Shown here one piece after another: positions 1-51,267 of a stretch of 64,000 nucleotides of DNA (position 1 is the stretch's first letter; the number at the start of each line of letters is the position of its first letter). The DNA is taken from positions 48,532 through 112,531 of IMG/VR virus record IMGVR_UViG_3300034112_000721. One strand, given 5' to 3'. The DNA comes from a virus. Below the pieces are notes generated by a model. That model saw nothing but the letters and a program-made list of their open reading frames with translations, was not told the DNA's origin and did not search any database. Made by a program: the position numbers and the translations under genes.

Positions 1-2125
1 CAATGTTCATAACCCATTGCTTATATTTAGCATCAGCATCAGGATCTTTTAATTCCATTTTATCTCCATCTATGTAAATTATTTTGTTTTTTTCTTCATA
101 TGGATCTTTTTTTGATTTGAGATCAATTTCTTTTGCGTCTTGAACAAAATCACGTACAGCAAGATTTACCTCTCCAGGTTTAGTTTTAGGTGCACTAGCT
201 AATTTTTCAACTGCAGCAAGACTTTTTGGTTTTGCTGTTGCTCTAGCAGCACTAACATTACTAGAAGGTTTAGATTTATTTTCTGATTCAGAGATTGCCT
301 TAGTAATATAATTAGCCATATTACCAAGACCACCAGCAGCACCACTAGCAATTAATCTTGAAAGCTCAGCAGCTTTTTCTTTTTCTTGAAGTTGTTTTAT
401 TGGATTACCTCCTTTATCCATTCTAGTTAATGAAGGTATAGAAATGTCTTCTATTATATATCCACCTTTTCTGTATTCTTCTATTTGATTATCATCAAGT
501 TCAAGTTCAATATAACTAGGTGCTCCAATCATATTTCTTAAAAAACTCTGTGCATCAGAATCTGCAATTGAAGGATTTTCAGTTGCTATATTTCTACCAT
601 AAACATTTGTAATTGGCCTATAACCAATTTTTCTATCTTCATCTACAGCATGCTGAAATGTTTCATGTGCAGGTGATTTTAAATATTCTCCTGTATTTTG
701 ATTAATACTATATGCATGATAATAACCATCACTCTCTTTGGGTTGATCATAATTAAATTTTTCTGGTCTTCCCTCAGAATCCCAATAACCCCTTATATCA
801 TATGTAGCATCATCTGTTTGAAGATTTTCAGGAAGTGTAGCATAAAATTTTTGAAATTCTATTTCTTCTTCTGGTGACAGTTTAGTAATACCACCATTTT
901 GTTTCCTTATAAGATTACCTATAGAATGTCCATAGCTTGCTTCTGGTAATTCTACACCATCTTTAAATATTTGTCCTGCACTTCCTAATTTATTAATAAC
1001 AGATTGTTTATTATCTATATGTCTATTTATTCCCAGTTCTTTTATTTTAGCTATCTTAGCTTTATCTGATCCTGTTGCAAATATTCTATCTTCAGATATT
1101 CCCGCAGCTCTTGCTCTTTCTATCATATCTGGTGTTACTTCAGCTCTAGCAGATATTATATATTTTTCATTAGGCATGGATTGAGCCATTTGTAAACCTC
1201 TATCTGTGCTAAGTGTATCATCAAAGTCAAATGAAATTATTTCACCTCCTATTTTTTTATATTTTAACTTTTTAAGATTTTCTAAAATGCTTTCTATTCT
1301 TTGTTCTTCTTGTCTCGCCTCTCCTTCTATTGTAGATGGATTCATATACATTCTTTCCTGTGCTAAATTTAGTATTTTCTCTTCTGGCATATCAGGATTT
1401 TCTTGCATAATTTGATCAAAAGCTTGATCAAATTCAACACCTCTTCTATCATAATAAGCACCTATTGCTTCATCTGATGCAACATATGGATTAGGCCTAA
1501 GACCTACTGAACCGTATGTACTCATTTTACCATCCATATTTTGTTTATCATGAAAAAGTTCATGCGCCAACCACCAAGGATTATTTATATTTTCTATTGG
1601 ACTATTTGGATTATATGTTATAGTTCTAAATGCAGAATTATAACCTAATTGATGTTCAGGATTATTAGGATCATAATTTTTTATTGGAACATATGTTATA
1701 CCACCATCTTGAAAATATGGAGAATTAGGATCAAAGATTTTATTCTTTACAGATTTTGATTTTTTAAATAACGGGTTTTTTGTAAATAATATATTCCTAG
1801 CCATTAAGCTTTTGGAATATTTTTTAGGATACTTTTTACTACCACCTTTCTTAGCTTGTGGTATTTCATAAACCATGTCTCCTTCAAACTGATACTCATT
1901 ACCTGGAGTCATGTATTGTGCATTACCTAAATTATCTATACCCAATAAGTCATCTTCTACTCCTTTCATGGTTATCTTTCCAGTAGGTGTAGGTACTGCA
2001 GTAGGAAGACCTGGGTAATCCCATTGCCCTCTTTCAGAAACAATAAATCCTTGAGTAAATCTTTTTAACTCATTTGGACCACCGGGTAAACCAGCTTTTT
2101 CATATTTCTTAAAAGACTTCTTCAT
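1..2125 (-). CDS. Large multi-domain putative virion cargo/ejected protein, truncated at the window edge; contains zincin-like (HELFH) and HAD-like (DFDDTL) domains separated by xxGG motifs
   Basis: Absent from the ORF track because it has no stop in the window. Hand translation from ATG 2125 (TAATG overlap with the upstream stop) gives MKKSFKKYEKAGLPGGP...WWLAHELFHDKQ...ISFDFDDTLS...IISAR...HIDNK...KQWVMNI, in frame to position 2. It follows the tail muzzle gene, as crAss-like cargo genes do. Confidence 0.75.
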   Translation of the reverse strand, partial: MKKSFKKYEKAGLPGGPNELKRFTQGFIVSERGQWDYPGLPTAVPTPTGKITMKGVEDDLLGIDNLGNAQYMTPGNEYQFEGDMVYEIPQAKKGGSKKYPKKYSKSLMARNILFTKNPLFKKSKSVKNKIFDPNSPYFQDGGITYVPIKNYDPNNPEHQLGYNSAFRTITYNPNSPIENINNPWWLAHELFHDKQNMDGKMSTYGSVGLRPNPYVASDEAIGAYYDRRGVEFDQAFDQIMQENPDMPEEKILNLAQERMYMNPSTIEGEARQEEQRIESILENLKKLKYKKIGGEIISFDFDDTLSTDRGLQMAQSMPNEKYIISARAEVTPDMIERARAAGISEDRIFATGSDKAKIAKIKELGINRHIDNKQSVINKLGSAGQIFKDGVELPEASYGHSIGNLIRKQNGGITKLSPEEEIEFQKFYATLPENLQTDDATYDIRGYWDSEGRPEKFNYDQPKESDGYYHAYSINQNTGEYLKSPAHETFQHAVDEDRKIGYRPITNVYGRNIATENPSIADSDAQSFLRNMIGAPSYIELELDDNQIEEYRKGGYIIEDISIPSLTRMDKGGNPIKQLQEKEKAAELSRLIASGAAGGLGNMANYITKAISESENKSKPSSNVSAARATAKPKSLAAVEKLASAPKTKPGEVNLAVRDFVQDAKEIDLKSKKDPYEEKNKIIYIDGDKMELKDPDADAKYKQWVMNI

Positions 2126-5100
2126 TATCTTATTGACATTTCATTTTTACTATTTACAACTTTTAATATAAAGTTGATATCTCTTTCTTGTTCTGTAGCA
2201 AGTTTAGATAAAAATAAATAATTTAAGTAATGTCTAAACTTCTTTCTTTGAGTATCTAACTTAGCATAATTTAAGTTTGCATTATTCAAAGTTTTAATAT
2301 AACCATTTGGTTCTGTATTCCAAATAAATTGTTCAGAATAATTACCAAGAAGTTGTGTAGTTCCAGGAACAAGAGGTCCTGTTGGAGGGTAATCTGACCC
2401 AATTGGAAATTCTCCTCTATCTTTTGTAATATCCCAATACTGATTAAACCTATACTTATTTTCTTCTTTTGAAAATAATATATCAAATGAAGATAAGTTG
2501 GATTGATTTAATTTAGGATATTGTAATGAAAGAGTAATATTATTTTTTGGGAATATGTTTAAATTAAGATATCCAGATACTTGCTCTGTGTTAGATATAA
2601 CTGCTTGACTAAAGTTTGCATCAAGAACATGAAACTGATCTACACAGTTAAATTGTGAATATCTATAACACTCTAAGGTATATTCTATTGATCTTACAAT
2701 ACTTGGAGCAGATCCTGTATTTATTGGATACTCTATTTCAAAAGGATATTGTGTACCATAAAAATTACAGAAGTCATCACATACATCATTATGTCTCCAG
2801 ATTGTATTACCTTTTACAGTAAACAATGTTTCTTTAGATGAAAATACAAGATCTGGATGCCAATCATGATAACTAATAAATACTTGTAATTTAGGGTCAT
2901 AACTTACAGTCCATGATGCATCAACAAAAACATTTGGGTGCCCTAATGGATAATTTACTCCAAGATAATTAAACTTATTTGTTTCTGGATTATAAGATAC
3001 TTTACCTATATCCTTTCTTAACTGATAATCTTTCTTAGTAAAGTATAGTATAGATGATCTTGTATCATATCCTGCTTGAACACCAATACCAGCTACTGGA
3101 TTATCTTGATGTGGATAATCTGGAAAATCTTCTGTTAGCTTATATGGTAAAAATAAAGAAAACCACCACTTCAATCCATTTTGTGAAATTTCTTTTATAC
3201 CCTCACCATATGCAAAAAGTTTACCCTGATTCATTGATGCATAATATAATCCAGCTGGTGAGTATATTACAGATCTTATATTTTGAGATGAACCATATTC
3301 AAATGGTGCATCAGCATTTACTGCAGACTGTGGAGGATTACTAAATAAACCACCATCTCCAATAGTTACTTTTTTACCAGATAAAGTCTGTAATGTATCT
3401 ATACCTTGATAGAACAAAGGTCCTGTAGTTGGGAATGTAAAGATCATACCTGTCATACCAACAGGTTTTACCGTAGTAATTTTATCATTAAACTGTACAT
3501 AGTTTAATGGTAAATAGATCAACCAATTATTATCATAGGATTGATCATCTTGGTACAATGAGTATAACGCTCTATTTGGATAATATGTAAAACATAATTC
3601 TGCAACTTGAGGATCATAATTTGCACCTTGTGTTGATCCGGCAGAAAGATACTGTGTAAAAAACTTAGTAACACTTAATGAATAATCATAGTTATAAAAG
3701 TTACCCTTAGTAATTACTTCTGGATTCATATCAAACAGCTGTCTTAAATCTGTATATTGATATGGTATATATGGTTGTTGTGATTGTAAAGTTCCTTGTG
3801 ATCTAAAGTCTACAAGTACATTACTCTCTACAAAGAAATCTCTTACACCAGAATTAGCTAAATACATGTATGAATCCTTAACAGATAAAAATCCTGGATA
3901 GTTTCCTTCCGTATCATTTTGTCTATCATAATTATCATTATCTAAATTATAATATCCTTTTGGCATTGGACCAGTACCAAATGTTGGCTGAGGAGTTAGT
4001 AAAGATATTATATCTGCAATTGTTGTTGCAATATTACCACCAGCAGCAATTGGATTTTCATCTTTACTGTATGGTGCAGTATTCATCCAATACCTTGCTG
4101 TAGGTATATTATTATATAATGCATAGTTCCATATAGTTCCATCAGGTAAATTATATAACCAGTTGTAAAAGAAAAGCATTGTGTTCTTTTCTGTAAATCT
4201 GTTTATATAAGTATCTCCTCCAAATATAATTTCTGATGTTGGAAGAACTTTATGAAATACTTGTCCATTCAACGGGCAGTTGCCAGATGTTGGTTGAGAA
4301 ATTATATTATTAGGATCAAATTTTTGTTCACACGTTGTTGCAACAACTTGTTTAATACTATCAATTCTACCATATTGATTTTGTACATTATATTTTAATC
4401 CAACATAATGACTTGCTATATTTCCTAAAAATTGTTTAAATAATGATTCATTTTTAAAACTCATATCAAAGCTTGGAACATCAGTTGCTTTACCAAGATT
4501 AATTAATGAGTTATCTTCTTGAAAACCAATTTGCTGTGTTGATCCAACATATGTACCAACTAACTGCGGTCCTATTGTTGGAGCAATGGTAGGTGATGTG
4601 TATGTTGTATTTGGAGCAGAAGTTCTAATAAAGACTGTCTTAGGTCTAGAAAGATTATTTATTGTAAATCTTTGAAAATTACCAAATCCATTTAAATAAT
4701 CTGGAACCTCTTGATTTCTATCACTAAGATAGAACCCGTTTTCAATTTTAAATCTTTTTAAGAAATTAGTATTAGGTGCAACAAATCTTGCATAGAATCC
4801 ATGTGCTAATGATTGTAAAGCATATTGTCTAAATGGTAAAAATGCTTGAATAATTCTTAGTGTTGTATTGAACCCCTCAGTAAAATAATATGGTAACTGC
4901 ACACCAATATTTATTGCGCTTGTTGCAAAAACACCAAGCCCTAAATTATTTAAAACAGTTGCTGTATTATAATCTGTTATAAGTGTTGTTGGTGGATATA
5001 GTCCAATATTTGCATATGATTGTGCCGTTGTTTCAAAAATCTCTTCAAGCGTTAAAGATGCCGGATTACCAGGTCCAGTAATTGCACCAGAAATTTGTTG

Positions 5101-7578
5101 AGAGGCACTATTAAAATAGTTATTAAGTTGTGTATAAAAGTTAAATGCATTACTTGCAGCAGCATTTACTGTAAATGAATCAAGATCTCCTGGTGGTGGA
5201 TTTGGTGGTGTTAAGTTATTACCATTACCACCTGCAATATTCCAATAATCATATTTTTGATAAGGGACTTGAAAATCTGGAAGAGCTGGTGATGATATCT
5301 GTTTCTTACCCAATAAGTTTAATAAAGCATTTCCAAGACCAGCTATAATTGCAATATAAACCGCAGCATTACTCATCAACTGATTTTCAGGATGCTTATC
5401 TGGTATTACAAAAGAATGTACTGAGTTACCTTCTAAACTTCCATAGATTTTTAATTCAGTTTGGTTTATAAAAGGATTTCTAAAGCTAGTATCTGGAGAT
5501 GTAAATGTAAGAAGGTTTTTTGGTATACCTTGATTTACAAATGTTTCATTTCCATCTTTATCTATAGTGGTTGTTTTAATAAAAGGATCATTATAATAAT
5601 AATCATGATCTCCAATATTTGCAGTATTATCTAATGGTATTGAACAGTTAAATGGATAGTTTGCATATAGTCCTGTTCTATTACCTTTTGATTGCCCCTG
5701 TATAGGATAAGTCCTAAAGTTATTAATCATCCCTTTAGCAACTATACTAAGATTACCTTCTCTTGAACCTCTTAGTATTTCATATCCAACTATATTAGGA
5801 ATATCATTACCGTCATTATCTTTTGGGTAGATTATATTATTAAACTCTACACCCATTATTCTAATAAACTTTTTACCATCAGAAGCATTAGCATTTTCTA
5901 CTCTAAAGTGATATGTATCAGGTGTTAATGCATTATCTGGAAACTTGTGATGTCTAATAGGTTTACCACAAAGATCATATCTTGGATCTTTAGTAGCTGT
6001 CCAACACTGTGAACTTGAATTCCATATGTTAGGTTGGTTATCAGGATATATTTCTGTAGATTGCCAGTATCCCATTTTACCTTTAGCTAATACAACTCCT
6101 CCATCAGGTAATACTGGATAGTTAGGAAAGTATGTATCTGTCTGCCAAGCTGTATTTACAGTTTCAAATAATAATGTGTTATCTACAAAACTATTCTTAT
6201 CTGTATATGTATCAGCATCTTTTGTATTTGCAGGAACATTATCTGGATTTGGTGTTGGATAGTTTTCTTCTGGTCTTCCAGGAATGTGATAAGATGCAGA
6301 TTTATCTCCAGTATTGTATACCCATCTTATAAAGAAAGCATATACCTCATCTCTAAGATAACCTACTTTAGATCCTCCAGTAATATAATAGTCTTCAGGA
6401 TATTCAACTGACACCCATTTAGTATTTATCAAATTAGCAAGTGGCTGATAATTAAAATCAAATTTAGATGTGGGAGCAATTCTAAGTAAGTACTGTCCAA
6501 CATTAACTATCTGATCTGATTTCTCATATACTGGATTTAATAATGGTATAGCTGATGTTGGTATAGTTATTAATGTCTGTGGTATATCATCTAATAAGAT
6601 TGATGTTTCAGAAGTAGAATAATAACCAATCTGTTTTGCTTGAACATTTTCATTAATTGATCTAACTATTACTAATTCAAACTGCTCAAAGTTTTCAGTG
6701 TCTAAATCTAATGTTAATAGTAATGATCCTTGTGAAACATCATTAGGATTATATACTGGTTGAAGATTACTTGGAGAAAAATAATTAGTTACATTCTGAC
6801 CCTTAATAGAATATGCTACAACGGCAAAGTAAGTTCCATTTTCTAATGTACCTGTACCAGGTGCAATTGAAAGTTGAACGCATGGTGTCTGTACTAATGA
6901 TGCCAATCTTATTTTGTCACAATCTAAAAAGTTTAAATCTGTACATATTTTACAATCTCCAGGAGTACATTTTTGTTCCCATGCAGTAATTGGCCATAAT
7001 ACAGTTCCACTTGATGAAATATATCTATTATAATTTATACCTGCTGTAGCTTGATTAGAGCCACCCCATTGAAAAGATGAATCTGGCCATGTCTTTGGAT
7101 CACCAATATTTAAATATCTATCAGGATTTAAACCATCTGCCCAATACACTTCCCACTTACAATCTCCCTTTTGTCTAGAAGCTCCGGTAATTAAATTATA
7201 TGGACTAAAATTTAAACATGGTGCAGAAACAATTGGTCTATACAAACAATGTTCTTCTTCATATAAACCAATTTCAGAATTAACAGGTTTACCATTTACA
7301 GTAGCAACAGTAAATATAATCCACTTATCCGCATATAAATGTATAATACCAATAATAGCTTTATCACCCTGCATGGTCTCTCCACTTGTTCCGCAGAGAT
7401 AGTTTGAGTCCTCATTAGATAAAGTACCTAGGTTACCCTCATCAGTATTATTGACCATGTTTCTTGCATGTGTCCATAGTCCAGATGTTACAAATGATGG
7501 GTCTGTATCTTTATTTAGACCTTTAGAGAAACTATTTGTAATATTCTGAGTAGTATTTTGAAGACCTTTTTTAGCCAT
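2125..7578 (-). CDS. Tail muzzle / stabilization protein (crAss-like)
   Basis: 1817 aa; N-terminal FSKGLNKD..P...W..ARN pattern, internal YLRDEVYAFFIRW and WTVSYDP...FISYHDWHP; lies downstream of ring proteins. Confidence 0.8.
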   Translation of the reverse strand: MAKKGLQNTTQNITNSFSKGLNKDTDPSFVTSGLWTHARNMVNNTDEGNLGTLSNEDSNYLCGTSGETMQGDKAIIGIIHLYADKWIIFTVATVNGKPVNSEIGLYEEEHCLYRPIVSAPCLNFSPYNLITGASRQKGDCKWEVYWADGLNPDRYLNIGDPKTWPDSSFQWGGSNQATAGINYNRYISSSGTVLWPITAWEQKCTPGDCKICTDLNFLDCDKIRLASLVQTPCVQLSIAPGTGTLENGTYFAVVAYSIKGQNVTNYFSPSNLQPVYNPNDVSQGSLLLTLDLDTENFEQFELVIVRSINENVQAKQIGYYSTSETSILLDDIPQTLITIPTSAIPLLNPVYEKSDQIVNVGQYLLRIAPTSKFDFNYQPLANLINTKWVSVEYPEDYYITGGSKVGYLRDEVYAFFIRWVYNTGDKSASYHIPGRPEENYPTPNPDNVPANTKDADTYTDKNSFVDNTLLFETVNTAWQTDTYFPNYPVLPDGGVVLAKGKMGYWQSTEIYPDNQPNIWNSSSQCWTATKDPRYDLCGKPIRHHKFPDNALTPDTYHFRVENANASDGKKFIRIMGVEFNNIIYPKDNDGNDIPNIVGYEILRGSREGNLSIVAKGMINNFRTYPIQGQSKGNRTGLYANYPFNCSIPLDNTANIGDHDYYYNDPFIKTTTIDKDGNETFVNQGIPKNLLTFTSPDTSFRNPFINQTELKIYGSLEGNSVHSFVIPDKHPENQLMSNAAVYIAIIAGLGNALLNLLGKKQISSPALPDFQVPYQKYDYWNIAGGNGNNLTPPNPPPGDLDSFTVNAAASNAFNFYTQLNNYFNSASQQISGAITGPGNPASLTLEEIFETTAQSYANIGLYPPTTLITDYNTATVLNNLGLGVFATSAINIGVQLPYYFTEGFNTTLRIIQAFLPFRQYALQSLAHGFYARFVAPNTNFLKRFKIENGFYLSDRNQEVPDYLNGFGNFQRFTINNLSRPKTVFIRTSAPNTTYTSPTIAPTIGPQLVGTYVGSTQQIGFQEDNSLINLGKATDVPSFDMSFKNESLFKQFLGNIASHYVGLKYNVQNQYGRIDSIKQVVATTCEQKFDPNNIISQPTSGNCPLNGQVFHKVLPTSEIIFGGDTYINRFTEKNTMLFFYNWLYNLPDGTIWNYALYNNIPTARYWMNTAPYSKDENPIAAGGNIATTIADIISLLTPQPTFGTGPMPKGYYNLDNDNYDRQNDTEGNYPGFLSVKDSYMYLANSGVRDFFVESNVLVDFRSQGTLQSQQPYIPYQYTDLRQLFDMNPEVITKGNFYNYDYSLSVTKFFTQYLSAGSTQGANYDPQVAELCFTYYPNRALYSLYQDDQSYDNNWLIYLPLNYVQFNDKITTVKPVGMTGMIFTFPTTGPLFYQGIDTLQTLSGKKVTIGDGGLFSNPPQSAVNADAPFEYGSSQNIRSVIYSPAGLYYASMNQGKLFAYGEGIKEISQNGLKWWFSLFLPYKLTEDFPDYPHQDNPVAGIGVQAGYDTRSSILYFTKKDYQLRKDIGKVSYNPETNKFNYLGVNYPLGHPNVFVDASWTVSYDPKLQVFISYHDWHPDLVFSSKETLFTVKGNTIWRHNDVCDDFCNFYGTQYPFEIEYPINTGSAPSIVRSIEYTLECYRYSQFNCVDQFHVLDANFSQAVISNTEQVSGYLNLNIFPKNNITLSLQYPKLNQSNLSSFDILFSKEENKYRFNQYWDITKDRGEFPIGSDYPPTGPLVPGTTQLLGNYSEQFIWNTEPNGYIKTLNNANLNYAKLDTQRKKFRHYLNYLFLSKLATEQERDINFILKVVNSKNEMSIR

Positions 7579-17094: not shown

Positions 17095-17724
17095 TTATCC
17101 AGCTACTTCTGCCATATCATTATCTAATAGTCTTAAAGCTAATGGATCTGTACCAAATGTTCTTAGTTTATCCATCCAAGTTTGCATCTTATCATGCTCT
17201 TCAACTTGTTCTTTTAAGTATCCTAAACATAATTCATAAAGAATATGATCCTTATTTGACATTGCAAAATCTGCCATTTTTTTAATTTGAGTAGATACTT
17301 CTATCTCATGCTCATAAGATAACCTTACAATTTCTGGAAGACTTCCTGAAAAATCTTGTTGTGGTTGATCTAATCTTGGAGTTAATGGTTGTACTCCAAA
17401 TGATAATAAATACTTACGTGCAATATCAGCATGAGTTAATTCTTCATCTGAATACTTTCTCCATAGAGCAGCAGCACCTTTGAATCCTTTTTCATCTAAC
17501 CACATTGTCATTGACATATAAATTCTAGAAGAATACTCTTCTTGTTGAATTCTATAATTTAAATAGTCAACAGCATTATCTGTAATTAATGGGTTCATAG
17601 TAGCTACATCTGGAACTTCTTTTGATGCACCAGAACTTGGTTTATCAATACTAGGAATTCCTGTAGATGGCGGAAGTTTTACTACACTTGTATCTAATCT
17701 TTTTAATAATCTTTTCTGTTCCAT
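17095..17724 (-). CDS. Non-haem ferritin (FtnA-like) with N-terminal extension
   Basis: LN.RI..E.YSS..Y..M..W, EE..HA, HE..VS..I and EQVEE match the ferroxidase-centre pattern. Confidence 0.85.
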   Translation of the reverse strand: MEQKRLLKRLDTSVVKLPPSTGIPSIDKPSSGASKEVPDVATMNPLITDNAVDYLNYRIQQEEYSSRIYMSMTMWLDEKGFKGAAALWRKYSDEELTHADIARKYLLSFGVQPLTPRLDQPQQDFSGSLPEIVRLSYEHEIEVSTQIKKMADFAMSNKDHILYELCLGYLKEQVEEHDKMQTWMDKLRTFGTDPLALRLLDNDMAEVAG

Positions 17725-18434: not shown

Positions 18435-18929
18435 CTATCTATTTTTAGCAATTTTCTTTAAAGTCTTTGCAAGAGCTTTTCTCTTAGGAGTACAAGTAGG
18501 TTTAGTCATTGGAGTACAATATCCTTTGTGCGCAGGATTAATTGCCTTTTGAATCCACTTCTTATCAGTTGACCCACCTTTTTTAGCTTTAAACATTGGT
18601 TTATCTTCAACAGGTGCTGGGGGCGTAGAAGTTTTTGGAACTCCTCTTAAAACTCCTTTTAAAGTTCTTGTTTCCTTAGCTCTTTCAGGCTCACCATAAT
18701 TTTTTTTAACTACTGTTTTATAGTTACCATCTGGAGAATAAAACTTCATCTTTGCTTCTTTTGGTGCTTTATCACTTAAAGCTCCTCCATTATCAAATTT
18801 AGTTCTTGCAGGTTCTCTTTTACCTATAGGAGTATAGCCTTGATCTTTAGCAGATCTAATCTTACCAGGATATCCTCTCTGTACTTTTACAGATGCTCCA
18901 AACTTTGCAGTAGTCTTTTTAGTTGCCAT
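18435..18929 (-). CDS. Small Lys-rich protein (KKWIQKAI...ALAKTLKK motif)
   Basis: ORF track; very basic; contains FDNGG and AKKGG. Confidence 0.7.
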   Translation of the reverse strand: MATKKTTAKFGASVKVQRGYPGKIRSAKDQGYTPIGKREPARTKFDNGGALSDKAPKEAKMKFYSPDGNYKTVVKKNYGEPERAKETRTLKGVLRGVPKTSTPPAPVEDKPMFKAKKGGSTDKKWIQKAINPAHKGYCTPMTKPTCTPKRKALAKTLKKIAKNR

Positions 18930-18933
18930 GACT

Positions 18934-18972
18934 TTACTTTTTTACTTTACCTTTATTTCTACAGCTACACAT
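18934..18972 (-). CDS. Possible 12-aa basic micropeptide MCSCRNKGKVKK
   Basis: ATG-TAA ORF that fills the gap between two operon genes; composition matches its neighbours. Confidence 0.4.
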   Translation of the reverse strand: MCSCRNKGKVKK

Positions 18973-18974
18973 GA

Positions 18975-19313
18975 TTATTTCTTTTTAGAGCCACCTTTTT
19001 TCATGTAACCCATTTTATTTCTAACAGCTGTTGGTAATTTAGACAATCCAACTTTTCCTGCAGGAACTGGTTTAAGTGATCCACCAGTAGCCATTTTTTT
19101 AACAGCACCACCTTTCTTCATAGTAGGGTTAGTTCCCATTTGATTCTTAGAAATATCTGTGTTACCATTAGTAGGGCGCATTGGTAGGCCATTTAATGGA
19201 ATACCGTAGTTATAATCTGTAGCTCCACCTTTAGCCATCTTTTTTACTTTCTTAACAGGACCACCAGCTTTCATTTTGCCGCAACCCATTTTACAAGTTT
19301 TCATAGTTTTCAT
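18975..19313 (-). CDS. Small Lys-rich protein with five MxxGG motifs
   Basis: MKAGG, MAKGG, MKKGG, MATGG, MKKGG. Confidence 0.7.
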   Translation of the reverse strand: MKTMKTCKMGCGKMKAGGPVKKVKKMAKGGATDYNYGIPLNGLPMRPTNGNTDISKNQMGTNPTMKKGGAVKKMATGGSLKPVPAGKVGLSKLPTAVRNKMGYMKKGGSKKK

Positions 19314-19331
19314 AGTAATATATATAATAAG

Positions 19332-19721
19332 TTAACAATTCCACTTTCTTAAAGACTTGTTGATTCTAGAGTTAGGATCATTAGCAGTCTTTGAGCTTGT
19401 TAGTTTTTTCTTCATACCAGACATTCTAGCACAAAAGCTTTTTCTTCTATTGGCATCTTTACTTCCAGCTTTTAGTTTAGAAGGTTTAGTAGTTACTGCT
19501 GTCTGAAGTTTACTTCCTGGATTTTCTCTTCTATAAGAAGCAACTCCTTTAGCATTAAGACCTCCTTCTGGATTCTTACCTTCTTTTCTTTGCCATGCTG
19601 GAGTAGAGCCACCTTTCTTCATTTTATGATCTGAGTCTCTCATTATAGAGCCATCAGGCATTACATGATAACCTTTTGGTATATTAAGAGCAGCTTTCAT
19701 TAATTTTGAATTCCTTGCCAT
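19332..19721 (-). CDS. Small basic protein, DUF6321-like
   Basis: PAWQRKEGKNPEGGLNAKG.ASY...RRKSFCARM.G...SLRKWNC pattern recalled from this phage family; preceded by an H.MPDG..M motif. Confidence 0.7.
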   Translation of the reverse strand: MARNSKLMKAALNIPKGYHVMPDGSIMRDSDHKMKKGGSTPAWQRKEGKNPEGGLNAKGVASYRRENPGSKLQTAVTTKPSKLKAGSKDANRRKSFCARMSGMKKKLTSSKTANDPNSRINKSLRKWNC

Positions 19722-19723
19722 GA

Positions 19724-19894
19724 CTATTTTTTTACACAGTTATTATATGTTTTACCATACATCTTTTTAGTACCTTTCTTTTCATAACCTGGCCAACAAC
19801 TCTTTGCACTTCCACCAGCTTTCATCTTAGGCTTCTTACCAGCTATCTTCATTGAGATAGCTATTGCTGCTTGTTGTGCCCTACTTTTTGCCAT
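19724..19894 (-). CDS. Small basic protein, 56 aa (CWPGY...NCVK motif)
   Basis: Hand translation MAKSRAQQAAIAISMKIAGKKPKMKAGGSAKSCWPGYEKKGTKKMYGKTYNNCVKK; fills the operon gap. Confidence 0.75.
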   Translation of the reverse strand: MAKSRAQQAAIAISMKIAGKKPKMKAGGSAKSCWPGYEKKGTKKMYGKTYNNCVKK

Positions 19895-20153
19895 TACTTT
19901 TTCCTTTACCTTTATACTTATAATCAGGGTTATCTCTATGCCATTTCTTTGTAGCAGCTACACCCTGCGCAACTGTTTTGGCTCTACCTATTTTAGTAAG
20001 ATCAATTGTGTCCCATTGACCTTTATCTTTAGTAGGATGGTTGACCATAATATGACCAACCTTTCCTTCTCCTTTTTTTGTAGTCTTCTTATATACTACA
20101 TGTTTTTCACCACCGGCAGTAACTTTTACTTTCTTAGTTTTTGCCTTTGCCAT
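19881..20153 (-). CDS. Small Lys-rich protein
   Basis: ORF track; tight operon packing. Confidence 0.7.
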   Translation of the reverse strand: MAKAKTKKVKVTAGGEKHVVYKKTTKKGEGKVGHIMVNHPTKDKGQWDTIDLTKIGRAKTVAQGVAATKKWHRDNPDYKYKGKGKSNGKK

Positions 20154-20155
20154 TA

Positions 20156-20401
20156 TTAAATCTTTTTACCAGAAGCAATACTGTTAAATTCTTTTGCTTT
20201 CTCAGCTGCCATCTTTTTTACATCTGCCATTAACTTTGCATTCTTTTGTATTTCAGAAGCTCTTTGTAATGTAGACATAGCAGATTCAACTTCCCATTTT
20301 CTCATTTCTGCTTTGTTACCACCAAAAATAGAAATACCAACTGAAGAATTTGCTTTCTTAGCTGGTGTGGATTTTTTAGTTGTTGTTCTTTTAATTGCCA
20401 T
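20156..20401 (-). CDS. Small basic protein
   Basis: ORF track; tight operon packing. Confidence 0.7.
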   Translation of the reverse strand: MAIKRTTTKKSTPAKKANSSVGISIFGGNKAEMRKWEVESAMSTLQRASEIQKNAKLMADVKKMAAEKAKEFNSIASGKKI

Positions 20402-20403
20402 AA

Positions 20404-20670
20404 CTATCTAAATCTTGCTGCCTTTTGGGCTATGCCCTTGGGCTGTTTAACAAATTGTTTTCCTTTACTATTACCTTTAGCCTTTGCTTTATTTGTTGCA
20501 GCTTTCTCTCCTGCTGATAAAGAACCCCAAGCAGCTTCAGGTAAATATCTTTTTTTACCTTTTGACTTTACCTCTTTAGAAGAACCTTTCTTCTTATTTG
20601 CATAAGTTCCAGATGTCATCCATTTTTGTGCTGACCAATCTCTTAAACTTTGCTGAGGATCTTTAGCCAT
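20404..20670 (-). CDS. Small basic protein resembling the C-terminal half of DUF5872
   Basis: QQSL..W..QKW, RYLP.AAW and GKQFVKQP motifs. Confidence 0.65.
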   Translation of the reverse strand: MAKDPQQSLRDWSAQKWMTSGTYANKKKGSSKEVKSKGKKRYLPEAAWGSLSAGEKAATNKAKAKGNSKGKQFVKQPKGIAQKAARFR

Positions 20671-20870
20671 TACTTCTTGGTTTTATAACCACCACCTTTA
20701 GACTTATATTCTTTAGCTAAAAGTTGTGCTTTTCTTGCAGACCATTCTCCAGGATCTCCACCCTTAGAACCAGCTTTAATTCTTTCAAACAAAGACTTAC
20801 GCATACCAGGCTTAGTGTAAACACCAGCCTGGTTAACGCGACTTTTAGTAGTAGATTTCTTTAGTGGCAT
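20670..20870 (-). CDS. Small basic protein resembling the N-terminal half of DUF5872
   Basis: YTKP..R...AGSKGG.PGEWSARKAQLLA..YK..GGGY. Confidence 0.7.
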   Translation of the reverse strand: MPLKKSTTKSRVNQAGVYTKPGMRKSLFERIKAGSKGGDPGEWSARKAQLLAKEYKSKGGGYKTKK

Positions 20871-21244
20871 TATTTCATTTTTTTAGCACCACCTTTTTTC
20901 ATCATAGAAGCACCATACATAGCTTTAGGAACTGCAGTTTTAGGAGCTTTAGAAGTTCCACCTGAACGTCCTTTAGCTATTTTAGATGCAGAAACTTTAG
21001 CATTCTCTCCAGAGATTACACCTTTAGAGCCAGCTACTTTAGAAGCAGTTACACTTTTATTAGCATTAGTCATTCCACCAGTTTTCATTTTTTTACCAGC
21101 TGTAGCACCTACCGGACTTTTTGCAGCTTTGCCAGCCATAGCACCAAATGTAGCACCTGCTGCACCTCCAGCAAGTTTACCAGCTTCATAACCATAATTC
21201 ATGGCTGAAGTTCCTTTTTTAGATTTTTTCTTTGGAGTTAACAT
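20870..21244 (-). CDS. Lys/Ala/Gly-rich histone-like protein
   Basis: Low-complexity basic sequence; contains MKTGG and MKKGG. Confidence 0.7.
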   Translation of the reverse strand: MLTPKKKSKKGTSAMNYGYEAGKLAGGAAGATFGAMAGKAAKSPVGATAGKKMKTGGMTNANKSVTASKVAGSKGVISGENAKVSASKIAKGRSGGTSKAPKTAVPKAMYGASMMKKGGAKKMK

Positions 21245-45716: not shown

Positions 45717-45944
45717 ATGCTTAGAACTACTTACTTCCTAATAGGAATGTTATTCTCTTCCTTAGTATATGCTCTATTACTCTCTATAGAAGAAACACAG
45801 AGAGAGCTTCCGGTTAAAGGTATAGACCGGGAATATTATTTAGAAGTTACCGGTGATAGTATCTTCTTAGAATCTAGACAAGGACAAATCTACCGTGGTA
45901 AGTACTCAGACTTAGACAGTCTTATTAATGTAGATAACTTGTAA
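45717..45944 (+). CDS. Hypothetical membrane-anchored protein
   Basis: N-terminal hydrophobic helix. Confidence 0.55.
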   Translation: MLRTTYFLIGMLFSSLVYALLLSIEETQRELPVKGIDREYYLEVTGDSIFLESRQGQIYRGKYSDLDSLINVDNL

Positions 45945-46059
45945 CAACTATGAACCACAGTATGAGTATTCTCTACTAACACATCTAGCGGACTGTGGTT
46001 TCCCGTTAAACTAATTACCTCTATATATATTTTATTAACCCGTTTAAATTTTATTTACT

Positions 46060-46200
46060 ATGAAAACAATTAGCATTGTTCTATTATGGTTTGCCTTTAT
46101 TGGTGCCGTTGCTTTTCTTACCGCTTGTAAGAGTGCTCATGTACACTGTGATGCCTATGGTAAGACAGAACAAGTTTCCCGAGATGATTCTGCCAAATGA
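46060..46200 (+). CDS. Small lipoprotein, 46 aa
   Basis: Hand translation MKTISIVLLWFAFIGAVAFLTACKSAHVHCDAYGKTEQVSRDDSAK; LTAC lipobox; ATGA overlap with the next gene. Confidence 0.7.
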   Translation: MKTISIVLLWFAFIGAVAFLTACKSAHVHCDAYGKTEQVSRDDSAK

Positions 46201-46439
46201 TATTTGACAGATATAAAACACTTGTAGAAGAAAGAGCAGATAATATCCTAATTCTAGATGCTCTTAAAAACTCAAATCAAGATCCAGAGATTGTATCTAT
46301 TGAGATCAGTGATCTTATCTATGAAATAAATTCATTAGATAAAAAGATTAACCAAGAGATAGCCGCAATATCTCTAAAGCTTATAGGGTCAGCCCTAATA
46401 TTATTTACAATTACATTAACATTAATTAAATTACTATGA
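46197..46439 (+). CDS. Hypothetical protein with C-terminal TM helix
   Basis: ORF track; overlapping start/stop. Confidence 0.6.
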   Translation: MIFDRYKTLVEERADNILILDALKNSNQDPEIVSIEISDLIYEINSLDKKINQEIAAISLKLIGSALILFTITLTLIKLL

Positions 46440-46714
46440 TTAAAACTATTATCTTAGCAAGTACATTACTGTTCTCAGTTATTACTGATGACAAGTATGA
46501 AGGTTTAACAAAAGAAGAGAAGAAATTTGTAAAGAACATTGAACTAATTGAATTAGAGGTTCTACAAAAGGTTTACAGAGCTTCCGAAAACACTCTTATG
46601 GTAGAGTTTGGTAGTATTAAATATCTCCTTAATTCTGAGACAGGTCATGTTGACAATGTCTGGGTTCTTGGAGATGATGATATAACCTGGGAAGAATTAG
46701 GTCCAGAATACTAG
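46436..46714 (+). CDS. Hypothetical exported protein
   Basis: Signal-like N-terminus. Confidence 0.6.
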   Translation: MIKTIILASTLLFSVITDDKYEGLTKEEKKFVKNIELIELEVLQKVYRASENTLMVEFGSIKYLLNSETGHVDNVWVLGDDDITWEELGPEY

Positions 46715-46722
46715 AAAGGTAT

Positions 46723-46796
46723 AGTCCCATAGCTCAACTGGATAGAGCAACACACTTCTAATGTGTAGGTTACAGGTTCGACTCCTGTTGGGACTA
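46723..46796 (+). tRNA. tRNA-Arg (anticodon TCT)
   Basis: AGTCCCA/TGGGACT acceptor, GCTC/GAGC D-stem, ACACA-CTTCTAA-TGTGT anticodon arm, ACAGG-TTCGACT-CCTGT T-arm; CCA not encoded. Confidence 0.95.
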
Positions 46797-46820
46797 CTTC
46801 TATTCACTAAAATTAATTAC

Positions 46821-47039
46821 ATGAAAGACAATAAGCTTATAACATCAGTAATGGGATTTGATCTTGAATGCAAAGTTCTAGATGAAAACAATCAACCAGT
46901 AAAACAAGGATTTACCACTGTTTACAAATTTAAAGGCGGACCAAACTTTAAAAACAGAATGATTAACAGAAAGTTTTGGACTAATTACAATGAGGGTCTA
47001 TTGAACAAGATTCTAGATTACAGAAGAAATAATGATTAA
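46821..47039 (+). CDS. Hypothetical protein
   Basis: Start moved to ATG 46821 so the gene does not overlap the tRNA. Confidence 0.6.
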   Translation: MKDNKLITSVMGFDLECKVLDENNQPVKQGFTTVYKFKGGPNFKNRMINRKFWTNYNEGLLNKILDYRRNND

Positions 47040-47454
47040 GACACACATACAATTTGATGAAACAGATGTTGCCAAGATACTTGAGAAAGTAATTACTGGT
47101 GATAACAAAGAAGAGATGATTAAGTTATTGACTCCAATAATATGTGAGGATAATAACAGTGTTGAGCTACTTACAAAAGTATACATTGGTCATCCACTTC
47201 CTAAAGTAATACCAGAGGGTTCCTTCTGTCATGTAAACTATGATAATCTTGGATACATATCTAACAATAAACAACAACTCTATCTAGATAACAGAGATGA
47301 GAATAACATGCTGGTTGGAATGGTTGGAGATTTCCGCGGTTATCATAAGGACATGTATAAGGTTACATTTAGACTTAAAGATGATAATGGTAATGTAGTT
47401 GAGGATTACAGCTACATAAGATCATATGAAATTGAAGTAATCAAGGAGTTTTAA
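47032..47454 (+). CDS. Hypothetical protein
   Basis: ORF track. Confidence 0.65.
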   Translation: MIKTHIQFDETDVAKILEKVITGDNKEEMIKLLTPIICEDNNSVELLTKVYIGHPLPKVIPEGSFCHVNYDNLGYISNNKQQLYLDNRDENNMLVGMVGDFRGYHKDMYKVTFRLKDDNGNVVEDYSYIRSYEIEVIKEF

Positions 47455-47489
47455 GATAGTGTATTCTGTGAATATACTTTTCCAATCCA

Positions 47490-47522
47490 AATAACAGGGG
47501 GTATTATTGCCCCCTTTTATTG
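47490..47522 (+). terminator. Intrinsic terminator
   Basis: AGGGGGTA...TGCCCCCT followed by TTTATT. Confidence 0.7.
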
Positions 47523-47603
47523 TTAGCTATATATTGCATTATTTTATTTTCTGTAAGCAGTTTTACTTGATATTATCACGTATTTTTACTACAGCTATAA
47601 TAA

Positions 47604-47876
47604 ATGCAATATCAGTTACCAAATGGAAAGGTTATATACCTAACAATTGAAGAGTATTTAGAACTTACAGATCTAGATATACAATTCTTAATGTCCATTG
47701 ATTATGGTGAACACATTATAGATCCTTTTATTGGTTCTGCTGTTGAGAAAAACACCAGAGAAAAATTTATTGATATAGACTTTCTTCCACTAGAAGATTA
47801 TGACCTTAATGATATACCATCAGATGATTGTCCATTTGATGATATCATTGACTTAGAGGATCCACTGGATAACTAA
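47604..47876 (+). CDS. Hypothetical acidic protein
   Basis: YQLPNGK.IYLTIEEYL with a very acidic tail. Confidence 0.65.
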   Translation: MQYQLPNGKVIYLTIEEYLELTDLDIQFLMSIDYGEHIIDPFIGSAVEKNTREKFIDIDFLPLEDYDLNDIPSDDCPFDDIIDLEDPLDN

Positions 47877-47993
47877 TATTGCTAATCGCGATATGCAATA
47901 TTAACACTTATCACTTAGCTTGAGTAACTAATGATATAGTACAATTCTACTCAAACAATCTATTTATTTATTTATTTATTAAAAACAAGAATT

Positions 47994-48470
47994 ATGAATT
48001 CAACAGTTAAAGTTGTAGCTGATGCTACTACAGGTGCAGTAGTTAGAGTTTCTGAATCTAACCCAGAGTTTGCAAGTGTAAGATTAGAGCAAACACGTAT
48101 GGTAATTGGAAACAATAACTTTATTGAAAGAAAAACAGTATCTACTTTGTTGCAAGGTGCTACTGCAGATTTAACAGCTATGGGCTTTTATGCCGGACAA
48201 GAGCTACCAGGTTCTATTGTTATTGAGGAGTCATTGACTGCATTTAACAAGAAAAATCCTGAGCGTGATCTTAAGATTGCTGGAGAAACAGGTATTGTTT
48301 GTACTGTAGGTGGGCAACCAATCTACCGTAGAGCAACTTATTCTACTGCATCTAATGCACAAGACACACTTGTTAAGCATGATAATGTAGAACAATTGCG
48401 TTCTGCTTATGCACAAACTAGTAATAGTGCAGCACTTAAATCTGCTGCTGGACAAGAGTTCAATATCTAA
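47994..48470 (+). CDS. Hypothetical beta-rich protein (possibly OB-fold)
   Basis: ORF track; structured leader and its own terminator. Confidence 0.65.
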   Translation: MNSTVKVVADATTGAVVRVSESNPEFASVRLEQTRMVIGNNNFIERKTVSTLLQGATADLTAMGFYAGQELPGSIVIEESLTAFNKKNPERDLKIAGETGIVCTVGGQPIYRRATYSTASNAQDTLVKHDNVEQLRSAYAQTSNSAALKSAAGQEFNI

Positions 48471-48486
48471 GAACTAGATGAAATAT

Positions 48487-48514
48487 AAATGGGGGTCACT
48501 GGCCCCCATTTTTT
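48487..48514 (+). terminator. Intrinsic terminator
   Basis: AAATGGGGG...CCCCCATTT followed by a T-run. Confidence 0.8.
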
Positions 48515-48533
48515 ATTATTATGATTTATTAAT

Positions 48534-49034
48534 ATGAAAATGTATAAAATGGAAAAGTTAAAACAGGAAATTAGAAGTTATCAGTTAAATGCAGGTAAAA
48601 CCTACATGCAATATGAATCAGATGGATACTCTCAATATCAGAATTATCTGTACAAAAGAGCACTATATGGTTTAAATGCACTGACACAAGAAGAACTTGC
48701 TTCAATGTGTAGCAAAAAGAAACAAAGGGTGCTTAATGTGTATAAGCGTGCACAGAAGGTACTTAATGTATTCAAACAAAAGGTTACTATTCAGTATACT
48801 AATGAGATATTCAAGACTCTATTCCCAAAGAGCCCTTGGACAGATGACATGCTTACATACGTGGAAACAGATGAGAAATTTGTAAACACTTTAACTTTTA
48901 AAGATTTAAATATATCCAAAAAGGATATTATCACTATCTTTATGTCTGAGGGTATTCTTCCCAAAAACTTTTTAAGTTTAAAAGAAGCACCAGTAACATT
49001 ACCAAGATTAAAGAATGAAGTTAAAAGTATGTGA
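48534..49034 (+). CDS. Hypothetical protein
   Basis: ORF track. Confidence 0.65.
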   Translation: MKMYKMEKLKQEIRSYQLNAGKTYMQYESDGYSQYQNYLYKRALYGLNALTQEELASMCSKKKQRVLNVYKRAQKVLNVFKQKVTIQYTNEIFKTLFPKSPWTDDMLTYVETDEKFVNTLTFKDLNISKKDIITIFMSEGILPKNFLSLKEAPVTLPRLKNEVKSM

Positions 49035-49419
49035 TGGCTGTCAAAAAGAGACAGTAATATGGAAGAACCATGGGGGATTTAAATACTGTAAATATTGTTG
49101 GAGTTGCCAAAAAGCCATTGATAGTAACAGTGTACAGAAACCAACTGACTATAAAATTCCCCAGGTTTCTTCTAAACGGAAGAAAAAAGACCAAGAGTAT
49201 TTAAAGCTAAGAAACAGGTTTCTTACTGATTTCAGTCTATGTCAGATTGCAGTAAAAGGTTGTAGTGTTAATGCTACAGATGTACACCACACATATGCTG
49301 GTGCTAACAGAGATGCCTTTTATTTGGTACAGTCTACATGGCTTGCAGTTTGTAGAAACTGTCATGATTGGATTCATGCTCATCCAAAAGAATCAAGAGC
49401 ATTTGGTTACTTAAAATAA
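49015..49419 (+). CDS. HNH-family nuclease with N-terminal Zn finger
   Basis: CxxC..CxxC; DVHH...LAVCRNCHDWIH. Confidence 0.75.
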   Translation: MKLKVCDGCQKETVIWKNHGGFKYCKYCWSCQKAIDSNSVQKPTDYKIPQVSSKRKKKDQEYLKLRNRFLTDFSLCQIAVKGCSVNATDVHHTYAGANRDAFYLVQSTWLAVCRNCHDWIHAHPKESRAFGYLK

Positions 49420-49429
49420 TTTAAAATTT

Positions 49430-50173
49430 ATGATTATGAATATGATTGGAAAAGAACTAAAAGTAAACACAACTACAGATTATTCAAAGTTTGCTGTACT
49501 ACCTATGAACAGAGGTATTGATAGCAAGCATGTACAAAAGATGATTGCTAGTATCCGTAAAATGGGAGTACTAAGATGTGTTATCACAACAACCACTAAT
49601 ATAATAGAGGGTGAAAATAAAAGATACATTATTGATGGTCAGCATCTTGCTACTGCATTAGAAAGAGAAGAAATGCCCATTCCTTATATTGAGATTAATG
49701 TAGAATCAGAACAAGATTTAGTTGAAAAAATGGCTTATCTTAATAACTCATCTAAGTCTTGGGATTTAATGAATTACATTAATGCATGGAAAATGATTCA
49801 GCCAGACTACATGAAGTTATTCAAGTGGAAGAACATGTATGACATAGAAATAACTATGTTAGCTGCAATTGGTATTAATAATGCTGGTTTTAAGAGCAGT
49901 TCACAAAGCATAAAGACAGGTGATTTTAGAATTACTAATCCAAATGCAGAAGATATGTGTAAAGCATTTAATGATATCTTCTTAAAGATTGGTATGTCTG
50001 AGCGGTCAGTAAAGTTTCAGTTTCTCACAGCATTCTTACAAGCTTATGGTAATTATAACCATGAGAAGGTAATTGCTAATCTTGATAAACATCTTAAAAC
50101 TGTAAAGCTTATGATGAATGGAGATGAAACTGCTACTTATATCAGACGTAAAATATTTAATTTACCAAAATAA
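49430..50173 (+). CDS. ParB/Srx-like N-terminal domain protein
   Basis: NR.I...HV..M..SI...G and YIIDGQH...A. Confidence 0.75.
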   Translation: MIMNMIGKELKVNTTTDYSKFAVLPMNRGIDSKHVQKMIASIRKMGVLRCVITTTTNIIEGENKRYIIDGQHLATALEREEMPIPYIEINVESEQDLVEKMAYLNNSSKSWDLMNYINAWKMIQPDYMKLFKWKNMYDIEITMLAAIGINNAGFKSSSQSIKTGDFRITNPNAEDMCKAFNDIFLKIGMSERSVKFQFLTAFLQAYGNYNHEKVIANLDKHLKTVKLMMNGDETATYIRRKIFNLPK

Positions 50174-51267
50174 TGGAAAGACAGGAAATACAAGATGAAG
50201 CTCTAAAAGCAACTGAGGGAAAGCAAAGGTGCACCATAGTACTTGGTACGGGTGTAGGCAAAACTCTTGTTGGTCTAAAGCACATGGCAAAATATTACTC
50301 TCCATTGCAAAGTATTCTGATTGTTGCTCCTAAACTTTCTATCATAAGCTCATGGAGATATGAAGCTGAGAAATTTGGATTAAGTAAAGTGCTTGAGGGT
50401 GCTACTTTTTCTACTTATCTGAGCTTAAATAAACATAATCCTAATGATTATGATGCAGTTTATTTTGATGAAGTCCACAGTTTATTAGATAGTCACAGAT
50501 CTTTTCTTAATAGTTATGCGGGTAGAGTACTGGGTTTAACCGGTACTCCACCCAAGCATAAGAACTCTGAGAAAGGTAGATTAGTATCAGAATATTGTCC
50601 AGTTGTCTACACTTTTAAGGCAGATGATGCAATAGAAAATGGTATTATTAATGACTATCAAATAATTGTGCATGAAATTAATCTTGACACTGCCAAGAAC
50701 TATAAAGTATCAACACAGAAAGGAAGTTTTATGACATCTGAGTTGCAAAATTATGGTTACTGGGGTACAAGGATTGATACAGGATCAGGGCAACCTCATA
50801 TACTTAGAGTAATGAGAATGAAAGCTATGATGGAGTATCCAAGCAAAGAAAGATATGCAAAAGCTCTGTTATCTAGTATAACAAGCAAGTGCATTGTATT
50901 TGCTAATACTCAAGAACAAGCTGATAGAATGTGTACACATAGCTATCATAGTAACAATCAAGATTCTGAAGAGAATCTACTTGATTTTAAAAATGGTAAG
51001 ATAAATAAACTTTCATGTGTATTGCAATTAAATGAAGGTGTAAACATACCAGGTTTAAAACAAGGTATTATTATGCATGCATATGGTAATGAACGTAAAG
51101 CTAGTCAGAGAATAGGAAGACTTTTGCGTTTAAATCCAGATGATAAAGCTATTGTACATATACTATGCTATGTAGGTACAGTTGATGAGAAATGGGTCAA
51201 GGATGCATTAGAAGACTTTGATCAGACTAAAATAGTATGGAGAAGTTATAGTTTGCAACCAACATAA
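50173..51267 (+). CDS. Superfamily 2 (DExH) helicase
   Basis: GTGVGKT, DEVH, LTGT, EGVN and QRIGRLLR motifs. Confidence 0.9.
   Translation: MERQEIQDEALKATEGKQRCTIVLGTGVGKTLVGLKHMAKYYSPLQSILIVAPKLSIISSWRYEAEKFGLSKVLEGATFSTYLSLNKHNPNDYDAVYFDEVHSLLDSHRSFLNSYAGRVLGLTGTPPKHKNSEKGRLVSEYCPVVYTFKADDAIENGIINDYQIIVHEINLDTAKNYKVSTQKGSFMTSELQNYGYWGTRIDTGSGQPHILRVMRMKAMMEYPSKERYAKALLSSITSKCIVFANTQEQADRMCTHSYHSNNQDSEENLLDFKNGKINKLSCVLQLNEGVNIPGLKQGIIMHAYGNERKASQRIGRLLRLNPDDKAIVHILCYVGTVDEKWVKDALEDFDQTKIVWRSYSLQPT

Follow-up and report, generated by a model that had tools for sequence, protein, structure and literature searches.

The 64,000-nucleotide stretch of viral DNA analysed here (the window) comprises bases 48532-112531 of IMG/VR record IMGVR_UViG_3300034112_000721 (G000), a viral genome of 112,531 bp with direct terminal repeats, rated 100% complete. 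At its start lies, on the minus strand, the 5′ part of a long open reading frame (ORF). It begins at base 2125, with the muzzle gene directly upstream, and the window edge truncates it after 708 codons. The whole gene has 1645 codons (G000 45719..50656), and the 937 further codons (G000 45719..48531) lie before the window. The phage is crAss-like and uncultured, and the product, encoded in the slot of cargo protein C1, is probably a polyvalent protein that is carried as cargo or ejected; it is referred to below as the cargo-slot protein. It is built of modules which are gained, lost or exchanged among relatives at a short peptide ending in Gly-Gly, here called the seam.

In crAss001 the muzzle gene gp44 is followed by gp45 (cargo protein C1), gp46 (cargo protein C2) and then the RNA polymerase proteins (PMC10172136); gp44 is the muzzle protein of that paper, while its GenBank record has ‘stabilization protein’. 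The crAss001 gp45 protein is a virion cargo protein present in both tail and capsid (Bayfield et al. 2023, PMC10172136). Farther upstream of the muzzle gene in the present genome are the genes for tail ring proteins 1, 2 and 3/4, the crassvirus major capsid protein, a P22-like portal and the large terminase (Pfam/PHROGs), and the Pfam families for muzzle, ring 1/2/3-4, capsid and portal stand in order. Packaging and delivery of the cargo-slot protein are suggested by this gene position together with a single annotated relative from Cellulophaga phage phi17:2, gp041. Up to ...NFQAGG, which stands opposite QAKKGG, gp041 aligns with the N-terminal module (35% identity, E 4e-5); its candidate seams are FQAGG, YQNGG, FQIGG and FQSGG. 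It bears the annotation of a virion structural protein and is encoded two genes downstream of the phi17:2 muzzle-like gene, with gp042 between.

Modules of the cargo-slot protein

The features of the window that bear on the cargo-slot protein are collected in Table 1. Relatives were gathered by a HMMER scan, which returned 3026 at E≤1e-3, with modules at many different positions; 166 of these entered an all-against-all BLAST comparison. A sequence-only reading of the window, which had 43% of the protein in view, had described the ORF as discrete segments bounded by six xxGG motifs, and all of the motifs that it quoted lie at the places given for them.

Table 1. Features of the cargo-slot gene and associated loci, in window coordinates; residue numbers refer to the cargo-slot protein
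Feature	Position	Strand	Remarks
Cargo-slot ORF, 5′ part	2..2125	minus	First 708 of 1645 codons; polyvalent gene, truncated by the window edge
Constant N-terminal module, residues 1-95	1841..2125	minus	Ends QAKKGG (90-95); kept in distant orthologues and phi17:2 gp041
Basic linker, residues 96-142	1700..1840	minus	Ends in seam YFQDGG (137-142; ...KIFDPNSPYFQDGG)
Zincin-like module, residues 143-294	1244..1699	minus	Ends YKKIGG (289-294); HELFH 188-192, EGEA 267-270
Capless HAD-like phosphatase module (predicted), residues 295-412	890..1243	minus	Ends RKQNGG (407-412); ISFDFDDTL 297-305, ISAR 324-327, HIDN 369-372
Module D3, residues 413-555	461..889	minus	Ends YRKGG (551-555); YYHAYS 468-473, PAHETFQH 485-492
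Linker/handle B, residues 539-573	407..511	minus	Includes MDKGG (569-573); ...YIELELDDNQIEEYRKGG YIIEDISIPSLTRMDKGG
Start of central region, residues 574-708	2..406	minus	Leads into Gly/Ala-rich, weakly hydrophobic stretches outside the window
Muzzle gene, upstream neighbour	2125..7578	minus	1817 aa; Pfam crAss_MUZ 5.7e-28
Cluster of nine small basic ORFs with M/F-x-x-GG	18435..21244	minus	Cluster and motif also in relative G004 (L032 5893-9787)

The 708 residues encoded in the window match no significant Pfam or PHROGs family, and a tblastn search of GenBank phages with them gave no match; the C-terminal 33 residues of the protein gave chance matches only. Residues 1-142 are on average 92% identical among five orthologues, and residues 1-95 remain recognisable in distant ones.

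The module that follows is a putative zincin, by motif only. The H, E and H of its HELFH and the T.EGEAR motif recur in 90% or more of some 30 relatives, and QN, RP and YY.RR are conserved as well. Its match to Pfam Peptidase_M91 (E=0.02, 15.7 bits) falls below the 25-bit cut-off. The AlphaFold model is poor, with a predicted local distance difference test score (pLDDT) of 30-45 over most of the module, and allows no fold call, and a PDB profile search with an alignment of the zincin and HAD modules found no match. Zincin-like modules occur in 37 copies among the 166 relatives, with the HExxH 53-57 residues after a Gly-Gly.

The zincin and HAD region was modelled separately from the D3 region. 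In the HAD-like module, a Rossmann-like core (residues 295-390, pLDDT 83-94) is followed by a disordered linker, ASYGHSIGNLIRKQNGG (391-412, pLDDT 31-36). In VIA searches the core matches the T4 Pnkp phosphatase (5uj0_B) with Z 10.6 (root-mean-square deviation 2.1 Å over 94 aligned residues) and many other HADs with Z 8-10, and Foldseek relates it to KdsC/YrbI (E 4e-3). It also reaches Z 11.6 in VIA to the universal stress protein 3tnj, which is Rossmann-like but unrelated; the fold alone therefore does not decide the HAD identity. The motifs SFDfDdT, SAR and GSDeAK are conserved in 11-13 relatives and fit HAD motifs I (DxDxT), II and III, while HIDN (motif IV) is only moderately conserved and no Pfam HAD family is matched at E≤5. 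Taken together, fold and motifs support a HAD-like assignment for residues 295-390.

Module D3 is the most widespread and best conserved module of the family. Its core (residues 413-504) is modelled at pLDDT 71-93 and contains an invariant His in each of YYHA and P.H.TF. Fold searches returned nothing with E<5 from the PDB (Foldseek), a best Z of 2.6 (VIA) and no usable match in the ESM Atlas; in BFVD the model matched two uncharacterised viral proteins at E ~1e-4. The sequence-only reading had proposed all three of these domains. Its HAD-like segment is borne out by fold and conserved motifs; for the zincin segment the HExxH and EGEAR motifs proved conserved while neither a fold nor a curated family could be added, and its third, His-containing domain is indeed conserved, with invariant His, but matched no known fold.

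Handle B, at the end of D3 and beyond, recurs at residues 1322-1360 and makes up the C-terminus of the protein (…DKEINQYRKGGWIVEEID). In the part of the gene outside the window, an SLT lytic transglycosylase domain is matched by Pfam (1.2e-8) and by PDB entry 9udh (5.6e-27). An ART-PolyVal domain (PF18760) is borderline, with 33.0 bits when residues 1138-1321 are scanned alone and 28.9 bits in the full protein against a cut-off of 31.2. A single chain of 1645 residues thus combines SLT, borderline ART-PolyVal, a HAD-like fold and zincin motifs, amounting to at least two unrelated enzyme domains; most modules match no Pfam family. Transmembrane helices were considered for the central region and rejected, as only weakly hydrophobic Gly/Ala-rich stretches are present (Kyte-Doolittle peak 1.3). 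Elsewhere in the family, a SET domain is found in two of 30 proteins (best E 1e-9), and L007 and L014 have a VanY D-Ala-D-Ala carboxypeptidase module (7.8e-21 and 6.5e-24).

Exchange of modules at the seams

Each of the six xxGG motifs marks a real boundary between modules. Among syntenic orthologues from IMG/VR, which are 606 to 2007 residues long, whole modules are gained, lost or swapped at Gly-Gly; some orthologues have VanY or SLT modules instead. In L004 and L005, which lack both the zincin and the HAD modules, the chain reads ...YFQDGG|ITKLSPEEE, while L008, which lacks the zincin module, reads ...YFAVGG|EIVSFDFDDT. In L007, L009 and L014 a variant of the zincin module is placed after ...YFQPGG|. 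The alignments with distant orthologues and with Cellulophaga phage gp041 end at residue 95, the second Gly of QAKKGG. Unrelated modules are therefore exchanged within one cargo-like chain, as the sequence-only reading had supposed, and its expectation that domain swaps among homologues would fall at xxGG is borne out both by these joins and by the position of similarity breakpoints.

Among the 166 relatives, the second Gly of a Gly-Gly is the exact site of 21% of right-hand similarity breakpoints, compared to 0.9% in the control, although the high-scoring segment pairs from which breakpoints are read are not independent of one another. Within five residues of a Gly-Gly lie 49.5% of right-hand breakpoints (control 9.7%) and 39% of left-hand breakpoints (control 9.6%). 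About half of all breakpoints are away from any Gly-Gly, an example being a swap near residue 1095 in L004. Viewed from the modules, 55 of 60 D3 copies have a Gly-Gly in the 10 residues before the domain start (control 9.8%), as do 10 of 13 copies of the HAD module. In places seams stand 17-18 residues apart. Pieces of at least 60 residues delimited by Gly-Gly have a median length of 142 residues and form, by a rough single-linkage count, about 170 clusters, 117 of them singletons.

The seam is a defined motif. With the two glycines counted as P2 and P1, the junctions show Y, F or M at P5 (68%), Q (46%) or K (23%) at P4 and D, K, E or N at P3. Gly-Gly as such is not enriched in the cargo-slot protein (13 observed, 11.6 expected, P=0.37), and the idea that it is more frequent there than background did not survive; only [YFM]xxGG is enriched. 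The raw count was accordingly replaced by a test of [YFM]xxGG, with expectations taken from composition-preserving shuffles. This motif occurs 16 times in the three cargo-slot proteins compared to 3.5 expected (4.6-fold, P<0.001) and 10 times in nine small basic ORFs compared to 1.2 expected (about 8-fold, P<0.001). In the other 97 ORFs it is at expectation (14 observed, 13.9 expected). The nine small basic ORFs encode proteins of 50-164 residues with a net charge of +11 to +30, and are tightly packed between the ring 3/4 gene and a capsid-adjacent gene.

Whole linker types are reused between unrelated modules, among them KIFDPNxxYYQDGG, ASYGHSxGNLIRKxxGG and the unit GG-ΦIΦEL-xDxEIxxYRKGG-YIVE[DE]I, which doubles as the C-terminus. 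The linkers are predicted to be disordered (pLDDT <50). Gly and Gln codons at the seams match background codon usage, and selection therefore acts on the peptide; a recombination signal at the level of DNA was considered for the seams and rejected on the same grounds. The seam is nevertheless used in recombination, as in the crossover with L004 described below.

Two linker variants were also noted. A zinc-ribbon-like linker, …CKKCGWTWDAADGGNDLTTCHKCGGQGLIHAQxGG, stands before different modules (L007 6001-9405; P0036, P0051, P0120, P0152). In the distant orthologues L021 and L027 a handle variant, GG-x-[YF]NPNTDE[FI][IL]GF[IV]D, replaces GG-YIVEEID both internally and at the C-terminus, and its internal copies are followed by LPKAQDG.

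Joint or cleavage site

The seam is tentatively taken here to be an uncut joint or handle, a reading slightly favoured over that of a cutting site and held with confidence short of even. The chain is a string of beads, in which a constant N-terminal module (residues 1-95, or to 142 in close relatives) precedes exchangeable modules of about 100-150 residues (zincin-like, HAD-like and D3), a Gly/Ala-rich, weakly hydrophobic core, and the borderline ART-PolyVal and the SLT domains. Linkers predicted to be disordered and ending [Y/F/M]-[Q/K/R]-x-Gly-Gly join the beads, and a bead is gained, lost or swapped by recombination within the few bases encoding the Gly-Gly and the next residues. The seam would act as a flexible joint doubling as a short docking handle, most clearly in the helix-GG-strand unit ...EIxxYRKGG-YIVEEID, which is also found at the C-terminus. 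Uncut, the string would remain a single chain while it is loaded into the particle and passes through the tail in single file.

The ends of the relatives are consistent with an intact chain. None of the 166 ends exactly at a seam, while 39 end 5-7 residues past the last one, and the commonest of these tails are conserved (YIVEEIN, YIVEELD, YIIEEID). In a large subclass the residues after the Gly-Gly are conserved as well, with Y followed by I, V and E. The spacing of 17-18 residues between some seams points the same way. Pro shows no depletion at P1′, the position that follows the seam (40 of 703, compared to a background of 6%). A six-frame search of the complete genome found no Peptidase_C5, C48, C39, S78, S77 or CLP_protease at E≤1, and Pfam scans of 33 proteins and PHROGs scans of 15 likewise revealed no protease. 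The zincin is unlikely to be a universal seam protease, as four relatives of 96-99% completeness and three partial ones lack it.

The strongest alternative is that the seams are proteolytic sites, and that a phage protease, either unrecognised or the zincin-like module where present, cuts after Gly-Gly at maturation or after ejection. The modules would be freed as separate effectors, and the small basic proteins would be chopped to short basic peptides, as are adenovirus core precursors. This is possible, if doubtful, and a number of observations favour it and weigh against an uncut joint. Conservation is weighted to the N-terminal side of the seam, extends over P5-P1 and ends in Gly-Gly within a predicted disordered linker, which is the classic appearance of a protease site; a plain flexible joint would need neither the aromatic nor the Q/K positions. 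The motif is specific to the cargo-slot and small basic proteins, and one of the latter, of 112 residues, has five M-x-x-GG motifs, where a hinge makes little sense. The neighbouring 1432-residue cargo-slot protein has a short basic N-terminal leader ending YGKGG (Gly-Gly at 16-17), and the basic leader of crAss001 gp45 likewise ends in a seam-type Gly-Gly (FDTGG, at 20-21). Zincin-like peptidases of the kind found in the 37 module copies have been proposed as processors of polyvalent proteins (PMC5512222), and a protease of unrecognised type, the D3 module included, is conceivable. The docking partner of the handle is itself hypothetical, and the cargo assignment, with no homology to gp45 detected, comes from gene position and one annotated relative.

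The crAss001 gp45 protein offers a further point of comparison. Cleavage at its strict motifs, at 21, 264 and 563, would leave the helix bound to the tail (214-245) on one fragment and the domain bound to the portal (425-552) on another, a point in favour of cutting, but three such motifs are not above chance (an estimated ~1.3 being expected). In the published virion proteomics a single band was excised, which hides the size of the protein. A recurring A-[F/Y]-G-G is also seen in gp45 (SAYGG, KAFGG, NAFGG, FAYGG). One copy, NAFGG at 424-428, lies inside the modelled region 425-552, and that bond is therefore intact in the virion.

Against cutting stand the genome search, which found none of the six protease families, and the scans without a protease, the lack of a zincin module in four near-complete relatives, and Pro at background frequency after the seam. 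In about a quarter of relatives cleavage at the last seam would free a small peptide without evident use, and no relative ends exactly where the cut would fall. The hydrophobic residue of the seam is at P5, in contrast to P4 in adenain, PLpro and deubiquitinases. The sequence-only reading had invoked adenovirus and African swine fever virus (ASFV) processing for a packaged polyprotein cleaved, or recognised for packaging, at Gly-Gly; the analogy suffers from this shift of the hydrophobic residue, and cleavage itself from the negative searches for the six families, the unremarkable Pro frequency and the tails that extend past seams. A more specific form of the proposal, in which an unrecognised crassvirus maturation protease yields changeable injected effectors and DNA-condensing peptides in the manner of adenovirus core maturation, is judged somewhat unlikely. 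Were it true, the presence of gp45 in tail and capsid would reflect two separate products of cutting and not a single chain running through the portal.

A third explanation denies the seam any recognition function: Gly-Gly linkers would simply be tolerated, and the shared motif would be a by-product of repeated recombination in linkers, copying a short sequence along. The crossover between this phage and L004 does fall inside a microhomology of 12-13 bases at the seam, GGTGGTAT[A/T]AC, and both the reuse of whole linker types such as ASYGHSxGNLIRKxxGG and KIFDPNxxYYQDGG and the half or so of breakpoints that are not near a Gly-Gly agree with such a process. It would nevertheless be expected to leave extra identity at the level of DNA, whereas seam codons follow background usage. 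The motif also survives where the N-terminal module of an orthologue has only about 50% identity left, and in cultured phages of another genus. It recurs in small basic proteins, which are no mosaics of modules, and is at chance in the other 97 ORFs; together these points make a mere by-product improbable. Finally, a chance or compositional artefact of a Gly-rich protein agrees with the raw Gly-Gly count but is hardly credible given the 4.6-fold and about 8-fold excess of the motif over shuffles (P<0.001), breakpoints on Gly-Gly at 23 times the control and the 55 of 60 D3 copies that follow one.

Relation to known systems and genomic surroundings

Polyvalent proteins of phages and conjugative elements have been described by Iyer, Burroughs, Anand, de Souza and Aravind (2017, PMC5512222), who proposed that they are delivered with the DNA. 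Like these, the cargo-slot protein joins unrelated enzyme domains in one chain, among them a borderline ART-PolyVal, a putative zincin-like peptidase and a peptidoglycan-cleaving domain, and shows extensive mosaicism. Unlike them, it is made of small modules whose exchanges are marked by one conserved seam peptide, and its zincin is optional. The text of PMC5512222 contains neither ‘linker’ nor ‘glycine’, the seam rule is absent from both PMC5512222 and PMC10172136, and a literature search on Crassvirales polyvalent proteins and Gly-Gly prohead protease sites found nothing relevant. Polyvalent proteins and crassvirus cargo proteins are thus each known (PMC5512222, PMC10172136); the cargo-slot protein unites the two.

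The likeness to crAss001 gp45 is one of position and composition. Both genes come right after the muzzle gene, both products are large with a Gly-rich hydrophobic part, and gp45 (L033 3988-6516) is itself rich in Gly-Gly (21 observed, 13.3 expected); in contrast, the cargo-slot protein is twice as long and carries enzyme modules. No homology to gp45 or gp46 was detected: BLASTP with the 1645 residues gave no gp45 match at E≤1, hhalign of the N-terminal profile gave a probability of 0.2%, and the D3 model did not match the portal-binding domain of gp45 in PDB searches.

Other systems share the form of the seam. As in di-glycine processing by the adenovirus protease and ASFV pS273R, and as in C39 double-glycine leaders, a short motif ends in Gly-Gly with a hydrophobic residue before it, and like di-glycine-processed proteins it recurs in internal virion and small basic proteins. 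Here, unlike in those systems, the hydrophobic residue is at P5 rather than P4 and no C5, C39 or C48 peptidase is detectable. Double-glycine leaders have the consensus LSxxELxxIxGG, which handle B (L-S-D-K-E-I-N-Q-Y-R-K-G-G) resembles in its hydrophobic spacing. Polymorphic toxins also have a short peptide where variable modules recombine, VENN in CdiA and PxxxxDPxGL in Rhs. The seam is likewise a short conserved peptide at a point of recombinational exchange, but it differs in motif and in its phage virion context, and there are many seams per chain, in contrast to the one junction before a single C-terminal toxin in CdiA and Rhs.

The seam rule would explain how an injected protein is repeatedly re-equipped with new enzymes. 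It would define where modules start and end, making more than 100 unknown module types ready for expression, and it tells where to look for cutting, namely at chain ends on Gly-Gly. Should the seams prove to be cut, the cargo of crassviruses is a polyprotein system; should they stay whole, the seam and the helix-GG-strand handle become a candidate cargo-loading signal. Crassviruses rank with the most abundant phages so far described (PMC10172136), and the cargo protein that they load and eject amounts to several megadaltons.

Downstream of the cargo-slot gene are ORFs of 1432, 843, 1012, 2870, 4143 and 1123 residues. The giant ORFs of 4143 and 2870 residues (G000 14695-35740), which come after the cargo-slot genes, presumably encode virion RNA polymerase proteins; they hold few copies of [YFM]xxGG (2 and 0, respectively). 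A 601-residue protein (window 38214-40019, minus strand) consists of 20% Gly and has 39 Gly-Gly pairs; it is probably collagen-like or a fibre, and its Gly-richness differs in kind from the seam motif. Finally, the virion structural block includes, unusually, the gene of a ferritin-like protein (window 17095-17724, minus strand; Pfam Ferritin 3.5e-26).

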